Part shown: in pieces, positions 41,427-48,128 of the stretch
How positions within the stretch are numbered: the stretch's first letter is position 1
How the letters are laid out: every line of letters begins with the position of its first letter
Assembly (NCBI GenBank): GCA_964016885.1
Contig: OZ024743.1
Coordinates: 109,926,001-109,990,000 of the forward strand
From: Eledone cirrhosa
Lineage: Eukaryota
Direction of reading: 5' to 3'
Length of the DNA: 64,000 nucleotides
Made by a program: the position numbers and the translations under genes
Notes under the pieces: model-generated
What the model was told of the DNA's origin: nothing
The model's input: the letters and a program-made list of their open reading frames with translations, nothing else
The model's database searches: none

Positions 41427-41974
41427 TATATTATTTATACTCTAGTCCTACAAATTGTAGAGTGCTACTTATCCGAATCTACATTGCTCTTATATATACA
41501 TGAATATAATGATATATGTGCCTGTGCGTTTGTGTGTGTATTCATAATAAATGTATCTATATATTTACACATATATGATGCGTATGTATGTATATATTTG
41601 CATGTTCAGTTACTTCTGAATCCGCTTTTCAATCTGTATTGATTTCTGGCTGCATGTGGGTGGAAGCATTCCTACATTTATTGTTATCTGTTATTGGCGT
41701 ATTGTTGTGATAGGTGTAGATGACCTCTCATTATTAATATTGTAAGCATGTTAGAGGATCCAATATAGTGACATGCTCGTCATCTAGTGACCACACTACA
41801 CCTGCTGCTGGCATATCATACATATTTCACCTGCTCAACATATTATAATTATAGAATTGTTATATAATGAGAAAGATCAGATAAACGCGTGTGTTTATTA
41901 CTTCCTGCCAGTATAATAGTAAACTTATACATTCACCCACGCACTCAATTATATATATATATATATATATATAT

Positions 41975-43178
41975 AAGTTGTAATATAATGAAACGAAATT
42001 TCATTTATCACTCTTAGTACGGCACTTACTTAAATGTAAGTATGTATGTATACGTACATACATATATGTATACAGACGTACAGTAGCATGCATATATATA
42101 TATATATACATATATACATACAGGTACACATATAGATATGTACGTATCAGTTTAGCGGACGTTTATTATAACGCCCGCTTTGTCCGTTTGTAAACAAGCG
42201 GACAGCCTGATTTATGCCGTACGGTGTTAAGGCAACCACGTCACCTTTTTGTTCAACACTGACACAGGAACGATGTACTAGTTTCAAGCTACTTAGCTAT
42301 CATCAGCACCGTATACCCTCCTGCAAGATGGTTGAACGTTCGAAAGTATATACTTTCCTTATGAAAATTAACGGCTGAGCAGCCTAATTTGCATATCGAG
42401 TGAGTTCAGTCGGCCAGGCGTACCGAAAACGATAAGTTATAATATAATGAAACGAAATTTCATTTCTCACTCTTCGTACGGCACTTACTTAAATGTAAGT
42501 ATGTATGTATACGCACATACATATATGTATACAGACGTACAGTAGCATGCATATATATATATATATATATATATACATATATACATACAGGTACACACAT
42601 ATATATGTACGTATCAGTTTAGCGGACGTTAATTATAACGCCCGCTTTGTCTGTTTGTAAACAAACGGACAGCCTGATTTATACCGTACGGTGTTAAGGT
42701 AACCACGTCACCCTTTTGTTCAACACTGACACAGGAACGATGTACTAGTTTCAAGCTTCTTAGCTAGCATCAGCACCGTATACCCTTCTGCCAGATGGTT
42801 GAACGTTCGAAAGTATATACTTTCCTTATAAAAATTAACGGCTGAGCAGCCTAATTTGCATATCGAGTGAGTTCAGTCGGCCAGGCGTACCGAAAACGAT
42901 AAGTTGTAATATAATGAAATGAAATATAATTGTTCCTGTGTCAGTGTTGAACAAAAAGGTGACGTGGTTGCCTTAACACTGTACGGCATAAATCAGGCTG
43001 TCCGCTTGTTTACAAACGGACAAAGCGGACGTTATAATAAACGTCCGCTAAACTGATACGTACATATATATATTTATGTGTACCTGTATGTATATATGTA
43101 TATATATATATATATATATGCATGCTACTGTACGTCTGTATACATATATGTATGTACGTATACATACATACTTACATA
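41975..43178 (-). mobile_element. Retrozyme-like array, family F: two 467 bp units plus an inverted partial
   Basis: HHRs at 42271-42311 (CGGTG-CTGATGA-T AGCT AAGT AGCT T-GAAA-CTAG-TA-CATCG) and 42738-42778. Octamers at 42387 and 42854. No recognisable ORF. Confidence 0.88.
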
Positions 43179-43614
43179 TATATATATATATATATATATA
43201 TATATATATATATATATATATATATATATATATATATATATATATATATATATATATATATATATATATATATGTATATATACGTATATAGAAGCACATA
43301 TATGCATATATATAAACTGCACCACACACACATATATCAATATATATATATATATGTACATATTTATTTATTTATTTATATATCTATAACTATATGTGTA
43401 CACTGATATATATATATACATATATATATATAGAATATCCCGATAAGGGTGAAAGCAGCGATTATTTGCTTAAATTTAATATGTTATTTTAATAAATAAA
43501 TGTATATATATATATATATATATATATATATATATATATATATATATATATATATATATATATATGTATATATATATATATATATATATATATATATATA
43601 TATTTATATATATA

Positions 43615-44470
43615 CTTAAAAGAAATAGGAATTTCACTTCAAGAATAGCTTTATACAATATGTATAAATATTTCGTATCTCCAAATAAATACGGTTTTAA
43701 GAAGCCGTAGCTATGTAAACACAGTGGGCTAACGTCATTTGGTGATGTCCAGCAGAAGCAAGTGGGACAAACGTCTATGCATTTCAGGCTTAACTGGCCT
43801 TCGTCAGGGCGGTCCCGCCCACCTCTGGCGACTGCTGGACTAGAAGACAGGCTGGAATATATAGATATCTCATCTGTGTATTCATCTCATTTGCATATGA
43901 AGCTGCATAAGTTGGCTCAACTTATAATAAAAAAGAAATAGTATTTCGCTTCAAGCATAGTATATATTCTCGCCTGTCTTCTAGTCCAGTAGTCGCAAGC
44001 GGTGGGAGGGACCGTCCTGACGAAGGCCAGTTAAGCCTGAAATGCATAGACAGTTGTCTCCCTTATTTCTGCTGGACATCACCAGAGGCCGTTAGCCCAC
44101 CGGTGTTTTCATAGCGGCTTCCTAAAACCTTATTTCTTTGGAGATACGAAATATTTATACATATTGTATAAAGCTATGCTTGAAGCGAAATACTATTTCT
44201 TTTTTTATTATAAGTTGAGCCAACTTATGCAGCTTCATATGCAAATGAGATTAATGACCTCATTTACACAGACAAGAAAAATATACATGTTCGCCTGTCC
44301 TCTAGTCCAGCAGTCGCAAGCGGTGAGAGGGACCGTCCTGACGAAGGCCAGTTAAGCCTGAAAATCATAGACGATTGTCTCCCTTGCTTCTGCTGGACAT
44401 CACCCCGGTGTTTGCATAGCTACGGCTTCCTAAAACCGTATGTCTTTGGAGATACGAAATATTTATACAT
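43615..44470. mobile_element. Retrozyme-like array, family I: 321 bp unit, one inverted plus tandem copies
   Basis: HHRs at 43772-43811 (-), 44013-44052 (+) and 44334-44373 (+): CGTC-CTGACGA-AGGC CAGTTAA GCCT-GAAA-TGCA-TA-GAC. Octamers at 43889 and 44239. Confidence 0.9.
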
Positions 44471-46540: not shown

Positions 46541-46587
46541 TATATATATATATATATATATATATATATATATATATATATATATAT

Positions 46588-47778
46588 ATTGTTATACTTT
46601 GGGAGGGTCATGTTGCCAATAAGAAACACATGCACCAGTTGCTTTCACTTCAATTTAATTTAATATATATTTATAAATTTACAAATTTATAAATTTCTGG
46701 TTGGTTGGTTGGTTCCACAACCAGATAGTTGTTTATATATATATAGTCATAGTTCTTTCGTCACACACTCTGTGACCTCTTCAGTGACTGGGGATTTCTT
46801 TCTTCGTTTCTGTGCCTTTCCTTTCTTCTATCCTACGCCATTTTGTTTGTGTGTGGGTTGCGTGCTCAGTTTGCGCATGCGCCACATCCGGGTGTCTGTG
46901 TGTGTTTGTGTTCATTTTTCTATTTTTCTATTTATATTTGTTTGTTTATTTATTTATTTATTGTTGGTTGGTTGTTTGTTCTATGTGTGTGTGTGTTTTC
47001 ATTTTGTCTTGTGTGTGTTTTCATTTTGTGTGTGTTTTCAATTGTAAGTTGTTTATATATGTGTGTGTGTGTTTTCATTTTGTCCTTAATTGTAAGTTGT
47101 GATGTTGCTGTTCCACTCATATTTTCTATTTAATTTTGGTTTTAATTCTTTTATGCTTACTGCCTCTGTAATTTGCCTAAACATTGCGTCTTTCTTGTGT
47201 GTGGATTCTATTTTTATTTCTATGCTCTCTAATTTACCCCTGTGTTCTATCTTAGCATGTTGGTAGAGCACAGATGATTCTTTACTATCTTGGAGGTCTC
47301 GCCAGTGTTCATTTATTCGTTCCCCTATACTACGAGCTGTCTCACCTATGTACACTATATTTTTGTTTCTACATTGTCCCTCAGTACATCTTATGCTATA
47401 TACTACATTTCTAGTTTTACAGTTAATATGGGGGCTTATTTTACAGGTTATACATTTCTTATCTATACATGAGGGTCTTTGGAACGGGTATGTCTTGCTA
47501 ATAAGTGTTTTTACGGAGGTACCAGGTCTTTCTACTATCTTAATATTGAGATTATGTTTCTTTAGGGCCCTTCTAAATTTGTAGGCTAGTTCACCTCTAG
47601 GGGTTGTATTGATTGTATTAAATTGAAGTTGTATTAAATTGAAGTTGTATTAAATTGAAGTGAAAGCAACTGGTGCATGTGTTTCTTATTGGCAACATGA
47701 CCCTCCCAAAGTATAACAATATCGGTTTCAACACACGATTTCAGATAAAGAATCTTGCTAAACAAATTCAGAAACGAA
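46588..47778 (-). mobile_element. PLE family J: GIY-YIG 3' part, UTR, HHR and inverted tail
   Basis: Open frame ~47086-47615. HHR at 46745-46789 (AGTCA-CTGAAGA-G GTCAC..GTGAC-GAAA-GAAC-TA-TGACT). 46588-46660 is inverted at 47650-47721. Confidence 0.88.
47086..47615 (-). CDS. PLE GIY-YIG endonuclease domain (5'-truncated; frame extends beyond the listed ORF)
   Basis: TPRGEL..VERPG..CIDKKCITC..NCKTRNVVY..C..C..VYIGETARS..ER..EH..RQITEA..LNRKYEW. Confidence 0.8.
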
Positions 47779-47821
47779 ATATATATATATATATATATAT
47801 ATATATATATATATATATATA

Positions 47822-48128
47822 TTTAAAAGAAATAGGAATTTCACTTCAAGAATAGCTTTATACAATATGTATAAATATTTCGTATCTCTAAATAAATACG
47901 GTTTTAAGAAGCCGTAGCTATGTAAACACAGTGGGCTAACGTCCTTTGGTGATGTCCAGCAGAAGCAAGGGGGACAACCGTCTATGCATTTCAGGCTTAA
48001 CTGGCCTTCTTCAGGGCGGTCCCGCCGACCTCTTGAGACTGCTGGACTTGAATACAGGCGAGAATATATAGATATCTCGTCTGTGTATTAATCTCATTTG
48101 CATATGAAGCTGCATAAGTTGGCTCAAC
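47822..48128 (-). mobile_element. Family I retrozyme-like unit (duplicated copy)
   Basis: HHR at 47979-48018 (CTGAAGA core); octamer at 48096-48103. Confidence 0.85.

Follow-up and report, generated by a model that had tools for sequence, protein, structure and literature searches.

Probable movement of a hammerhead-bearing repeat into TA microsatellites at a duplicated locus of Eledone cirrhosa by Penelope-like machinery

How does a repeat without an open reading frame (ORF) come to occupy a TA microsatellite that is empty in a second copy of the same locus? The question is raised by a 64-kb window of the Eledone cirrhosa genome (assembly GCA_964016885.1, contig OZ024743.1, positions 109,926,001 to 109,990,000; coordinates below are those of the window), in which a ~1-kb block of three segments, A-B-C, is found twice. 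In copy 1 a tandem array with a hammerhead ribozyme motif, F, lies between A and B, and in copy 2 two further elements, R and J, lie between B and C. An earlier note on this DNA took all three for insertions younger than the duplication and concluded that the non-coding array is mobile and targets (TA)n, an interpretation that our analysis supports in part. The reading that we favour, with a probability of roughly 0.65, is that the TA microsatellite was hit repeatedly by retroelements and that F, a hammerhead repeat which is not autonomous, owes its movement to a Penelope-like protein acting in trans.

All copy comparisons come from this one assembled window. The three segments are collinear in the two copies and differ by 40 substitutions in 986 positions (4.1%; self-BLAST and alignments), at a rate that is homogeneous across A, B and C (chi-square p=0.70). 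Segment A (copy 1 at 41491-41949, aligned over 41498-41949; copy 2 at about 45324-45777) contributes 17/452 and has no further copy in the window. Segment B (about 43273-43500 and 45850-46076) contributes 8/224, and the final 68 bp of its first copy are an end fragment of a repeat at 36508-36893. Segment C contributes 15/310 (47823-48132 on the minus strand against 43616-43925). F is flanked by (TA)13 at 41950-41975 on the left and by a 98-bp TA run at 43176-43273 on the right, and the corresponding place between A and B of copy 2 holds a pure 68-bp TA run (45780-45847). Conversely, copy 2 reads from B to C as TA, R (46127-46539), TA, J (46590-47778) and TA, and between B and C of copy 1 there is only a TA tract (43501-43615). 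The filled and empty sites reported previously are thus confirmed, with coordinates that were correct to within a few bases. As proof of insertion, however, such a pair does not stand by itself, since in microsatellites a deletion from TA to TA leaves the same scar, and it would account for the picture with two events instead of three.

The structure of F offers a way to separate insertion from deletion. F (41976-43175) consists of two head-to-tail units on the minus strand, unit 1 (41976-42434; 459 bp, ORF-less, GC 38%) and unit 2 (42435-42901; 467 bp), followed by about 27 bp of a third unit (42902-42928, minus), which form the 5' end of the left arm, and then by an inverted 247-bp arm on the plus strand (42929-43175), which is a copy of unit 1 from 42031 to 42274. 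The two units differ at 17/459 positions (3.7%), and the longest stop-free stretch in F is 69 aa. In the sense of the ribozyme both arms face outward and both 3' ends touch TA, the left one being longer by a 55-bp tail carried by unit 1, the right one tail-less. At both ends F stops at a unit position where the neighbouring unit has no TA tract; the TA on either side therefore does not belong to F.

The arm-to-arm divergence of a head-to-head insertion can serve as a clock, which is conservative if the arms began unequal. The inverted arm of F differs from unit 1 at 4/241 positions (1.7%) and from unit 2 at 11/245 (4.5%), and the arms of J are identical over 70 bp (0/70), to be compared with 4.1% for the block. 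Both clocks are younger than the duplication (F, p about 0.06 with the choice of the nearer unit corrected for; J, p=0.055; joint p about 0.003), in agreement with the proposal that F and J post-date it. General homogenisation of arms does not explain this, because other inverted arms in the window are diverged by 1.6-18% (10 comparisons). The arm agrees with unit 1 at 8 diagnostic sites and with unit 2 at only 1, and with a second, distant copy of the F family as outgroup, 3 of the 7 informative sites are derived states common to the arm and unit 1. Since the arm groups with unit 1 at diagnostic and derived sites, it is most likely that the two units of the dimer differed from each other before insertion.

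Could all the elements instead predate the duplication, the empty sites being TA-to-TA deletions of F from copy 2 and of R and J together from copy 1? Besides the saving of one event, TA on both sides of every element provides ready homology, AT/TA repeats are reported to break and delete in yeast assays (PMC12972899; PMC11797062, as far as covered), the 3.7% between units 1 and 2 equals the age of the duplication, and a deletion of this type may also lie behind the cut-off end of C in copy 2. The joint age of the F and J arms speaks against it, and any gene conversion invoked to rejuvenate the F arm must have skipped the adjacent unit, as the arm matches the farther unit 1 at 8 of 9 diagnostic sites, with three shared derived states. 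The clocks thus favour insertion of F and J, and we consider deletion of all three elements unlikely; for R alone, deletion keeps about one chance in three.

Did the array move as such? The mobility of F claimed in the earlier note is supported by the second family member at 18661-19339, about 75% identical, which has an ORF-less unit-to-unit junction, is also head-to-head and has TA at both ends, with its tail on the side opposite to that of F. It also bears on the idea that F is the truncated pseudo-long terminal repeat (pLTR) end of an autonomous Penelope-like element (PLE), duplicated later in place, so that the array itself never moved. It has been proposed that retrozymes can arise by local amplification of PLE termini (Li, Clavereau and Pollet, 2026, in the part covered), and the ends of F are of PLE type. 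Yet the F tandem (3.7%) is older than its insertion clock (1.7%), and the same ORF-less junction recurs in the second copy, which makes duplication in place highly improbable. What seems to have moved is a linear dimer of F, complete and with unequal units, a new point, though a small one.

The type I hammerhead motif of F lies in unit 1 (42270-42312, minus strand; the first base past the predicted cleavage is 42275). Its helix I is 6 bp long and its core intact; helix II, of 4 bp, has a U.U pair at its base, helix III is a 6-nt palindrome, and the site is GUA. The motif is kept in the second F copy at 18890-18921; in unit 2 the core carries A9 to C. The window contains 7 minimal type I motifs, compared with a mean of 0.05 (maximum 1) in 60 composition-matched controls, under scan rules fixed after F had been seen. 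Rfam gave no family at gathering score in the window, and at E<=10 the region 41400-46600 gave no hammerhead, its 119 sub-threshold matches being mostly microRNA models on TA-rich sequence, which we rejected; the minimum free energy folds of the 7 motifs are not significant (z from -1.5 to +1.0). This is as expected because such motifs are thought to fold as dimers (PMC4209133), and the F motif fits the canonical metazoan type I description (PMC4209133; PMC7229834; both in the parts covered). The inverted arm of F begins one base past the predicted cut of the intact unit-1 ribozyme. That inverted arms generally start at the cut was considered and dropped, as it holds for F and fails for the second F copy, C, J and the J-type element J2; as one case among about ten arm starts, the position in F is a lead only and may be chance.

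Segment C is itself a hammerhead-bearing head-to-head element, a point not made in the earlier note. It is ORF-less and older (43616-44468; left arm 43616-43960, minus, with a 46-bp tail; right arm 43961-44468, plus; motif at 44338), its arms being diverged by 24/242 and 23/282 (8-10%). J (minus strand) is a 5'-truncated PLE with a C-terminal endonuclease, head-to-head, with the 70-bp identical arms mentioned above and a 60-bp tail at its right end. The end of its ORF (47086-47649, minus) matches the GIY-YIG endonuclease family above cut-off (PF01541, E=7e-5), is preceded by a C-X4-C-X2-C motif (residues 61-69) that fits the CX2-5CxxC linker of PLEs, and is followed by the hammerhead-bearing repeat (core at 46784); the truncation falls ahead of the reverse transcriptase (RT). 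Two relatives of J (54201-55078 and 57664-58772) use the same two ends, and of the 6 ends of J and these relatives, 5 are no more than 1 bp from TA and one is in mixed AT/CA sequence. GIY-YIG or RT matches were found in 3 of the 10 reading frames tested, and the window holds several broken PLE frames.

This build closely resembles that of endonuclease-containing (EN+) PLEs of the Neptune/Nematis type (Craig et al., 2021; PMC8557442; this and the further comparisons with Craig et al., with the retrozyme papers and with Kojima refer to the parts of those papers covered). As there, we find partial tandems (in F) and, in F, J and C alike, an adjacent inverted, 5'-truncated copy and a tail at one end only; also shared are a hammerhead in the terminal repeat and a microsatellite bias with unreadable target duplications. 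The one-sided tails of F (55 bp), J (60 bp), J2 (58 bp) and C (46 bp) match the PLE tail (PMC8557442; PMC11167929), although at 46-60 bp they are longer than the 30-40 bp of Neptune/Nematis elements, and F and C lack an ORF. J shares with these PLEs the C-terminal GIY-YIG and the CX2-5CxxC linker, a likeness judged from the endonuclease end alone; the linker has been proposed to mediate the microsatellite bias (Craig et al., 2021; PMC8557442).

F at the same time resembles the animal retrozymes that lack long terminal repeats (non-LTR retrozymes; Cervera and de la Pena, 2020, PMC7229834; Li et al., 2026, bioRxiv 10.64898/2026.07.22.740005). It is a head-to-tail non-coding tandem of a few hundred bp, dimeric, with GC below 45-50%, and its type I hammerhead has the short palindromic helix III and the U.U at the base of helix II described for them. 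Its units of 459-467 bp are longer than the about 300 bp usual in animal retrozymes, and one of its two has an intact core, whereas Li et al. call a copy active when two consecutive units carry an intact hammerhead. F also has an inverted arm, a tail, a (TA)n target and an empty site, none of which is reported in the retrozyme text covered (PMC7229834; bioRxiv 10.64898/2026.07.22.740005). Both papers propose animal non-LTR retrozymes to be non-autonomous PLE derivatives; Li et al. derive them from PLE ends and state that the mechanism of mobilisation is unresolved. In the literature covered, at title and abstract level and with few subscription papers, we found no empty-site pair for an animal non-LTR retrozyme. 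The (TA)n bias of PLEs, the structure of inverted arm plus tail and the PLE origin of hammerhead retrozymes are already published, and the locus is a clean illustration of a known habit of PLEs and ribozyme repeats, not a new system. What it offers in addition is the combination of an empty site, PLE-type ends and unequal units, which suggests that PLE machinery mobilises linear multimers in trans.

Is TA then a true target, and whose? The 80 merged TA tracts make up 8% of the AT-rich window. Among 15 self-inverted elements (12 distinct ones kept from 25 local inverted matches, plus 3 palindromic intervals; the rows left out were 6 from a single large PLE family, 2 from a non-inverted repeat family, 4 that paired different elements and 1 duplicate), 13 have an arm that ends 10 bp or less from a TA tract, against 9% expected per element. 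Masking by TA is no explanation, because in 12 of these 13 the match stops where the other arm runs on in non-TA sequence. The contrast family, a short non-inverted interspersed repeat (3537-3741, 24260-24405, 29638-30023, 55804-55926) lying mostly far from TA, has 1 of 5 copies near a tract. TA preference of F, seen also in its second copy, is therefore supported; the targeting is most likely a property of the endonuclease of a helper PLE and not of the array itself. Alternatively, (TA)n could be merely fragile, cDNA or other DNA being captured at spontaneous breaks with no endonuclease choosing the site. The abundance of TA tracts would allow this, and R, which is not a PLE, and the duplicated block also lie in TA, but fixed family-specific ends and one-sided tails are a signature of initiation by the PLE RT, and the contrast family stays mostly away from TA; capture at breaks is improbable in our view. 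Among further elements with inverted arms, near-perfect 300-bp palindromes abut TA at 18281-18580 and 60758-61093 (the second with a hammerhead motif at 60862), and a head-to-head element at 49835-52566, whose right end is at TA, is young, its arms being diverged by 4/254.

The history of the locus would then be as follows. Element C would have inserted first, its arms now being 8-10% apart; A, B and part of C would next have been copied once (4%); and the last to arrive would have been F, between A and B of copy 1 (1.7%), and J, between B and C of copy 2 (0%), each in the TA tract there. For F, we envisage that a linear transcript of a donor array was bound by a PLE RT/GIY-YIG protein, which would nick both strands in AT-rich DNA, and that reverse transcription from two fixed internal starts would give head-to-head arms that reach TA with their 3' ends, one end bearing a tail. 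The two-strand nicking and internal starts are borrowed from in vitro work on another PLE, PAc Poseidon, in which both strands of AT-rich DNA were cut and extended and two internal RT starts explain the tail (Frangieh et al., 2024; PMC11167929). In that system ribozyme cleavage is dispensable and no RNA ends lie at the cut, whereas in F one arm, a single case, starts at the predicted cut. The structure, boundaries, motif, relative ages and second copy of F are read from the sequence itself; its RNA intermediate, its movement in trans and the identity of its helper are inferred. A more specific version is tentative and rather doubtful: F might be a dated record of retrozyme movement. What moved would have been a heterogeneous linear dimer from a donor array, as opposed to a monomeric circle copied by rolling circle or a locally amplified repeat. 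A Penelope-like protein would have reverse-transcribed it at a (TA)n nick, on both strands, using the uncleaved transcript for one arm and the 3' self-cleavage product for the other. The (TA)n tracts would also capture neighbouring DNA such as the duplicated block and so form a self-renewing landing site.

Several points weigh against movement in trans of F after the duplication. Each arm clock taken alone is borderline, the divergences of unit 2 from unit 1 (3.7%) and from the arm (4.5%) equal the age of the duplication, and a star tree of equal age for the F units and arm is rejected at p=0.054 only. Target-site duplications are unreadable in TA at the filled sites because TA lengths differ between the copies. 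The list of 15 elements was hand-picked, so its nominal p is not literal. No sequence common to F and J or any other coding PLE was detected in the 64-kb window. The mutated core of unit 2 lowers the status of F as an active copy, not its likeness to the family.

Where did the second block come from? Copy 2 is bounded by TA at both ends (45195-45324 and 48134-48202), which the earlier note likewise does not mention, and its C breaks off about 30 bp short of where the left arm ends, while copy 1 retains C whole. Three origins may be considered: repair may have copied A-B-C to a TA tract at a distance of 1.4 kb, a tandem duplication between TA tracts may first have been longer and then been trimmed, or the assembly may combine two haplotypes. 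Under all three, F and J are younger than the split of the copies. Transduction of 3' sequence by C is not favoured, as copy 2 lacks the inverted arm and PLE RT starts internally. The third option, that the assembler wrongly joined two alleles at a TA tract and that the filled and empty sites are an allelic polymorphism or artefact, gains from the long TA tracts both at the junction between the copies and at the end of copy 2, and from the transitions, which are only 13 of the 40 block differences. Of 9 public sequencing runs, 6 share part of the stretch (0.16-0.47 of the sampled words, the best 0.44-0.47), which weighs on neither side. On the other hand, the 64 kb contain no N although they include 80 merged TA tracts, which suggests a long-read contig, and the differences are evenly spread substitutions which in segment C polarise 8 against 7 between the copies. 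We regard a mis-join as quite improbable, and even with alleles F and J would be insertions younger than the split. Between the copies, a 24-bp perfect inverted repeat (44652-44675 and 45171-45194) encloses ~540 bp, the right part of which is found again at 9198-9459.

R (plus strand, 413 bp, TA on both sides) is a different case. Its description in the earlier note as an RTE derivative retains one basis: the first ~70 nt resemble a module in the 5' untranslated region (UTR) of two metagenome loci, L048 and L049, that encode an apurinic/apyrimidinic (AP) endonuclease and RT, a likeness that is partly circular, since a 22-nt seed taken from R served to find these loci. In them the module (L048:1900-2100; L049:2450-2650) is a ~71-nt tandem repeat upstream of the endonuclease-RT frames. 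Beyond the module R has no coding match to L005, L019, L020, L048 or L049; near its 3' end is a weak C2H2-like remnant (match below cut-off), and a protein search with its 55-aa remnant gave no long interspersed nuclear element (LINE) protein among the 6 checked of 20 hits, those being unrelated repeat or zinc-finger proteins. A motif of R matched two viral loci, which were not used, and a 27-nt motif specific to F gave 0 matches in metagenome contigs. Bipartite non-autonomous RTE LINEs, with a piece of 5' UTR and a short 3' part as in R, are known (Kojima, 2018; PMC5786205), although the 3' part of R, unlike theirs, matched no LINE; RTE 3' microsatellite tails are also on record (PMC6007223, in the part covered). 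Membership in RTE is plausible. In all probability R is a LINE with an internal deletion that also came to lie in TA; its arrival is undated, as a single copy with no inverted arm and no visible target-site duplication has no clock.

Elsewhere in the window, a 122-aa frame between TA tracts at 2074-2442 (minus) has no Pfam match; it looks like the C-terminal end of a LINE ORF. A large head-to-head PLE family at 37210-41426 contains RT and endonuclease remnants, internal 79-bp repeats and microsatellites, with more copies at 962-2041 and 61151-61524, one of them with a hammerhead motif at 61250. At 6665-8685 (minus), GC-rich PLE-like RT frames (562 aa stop-free, RVT_1 E=6e-5) stand out in the AT-rich window and are possibly young or foreign.

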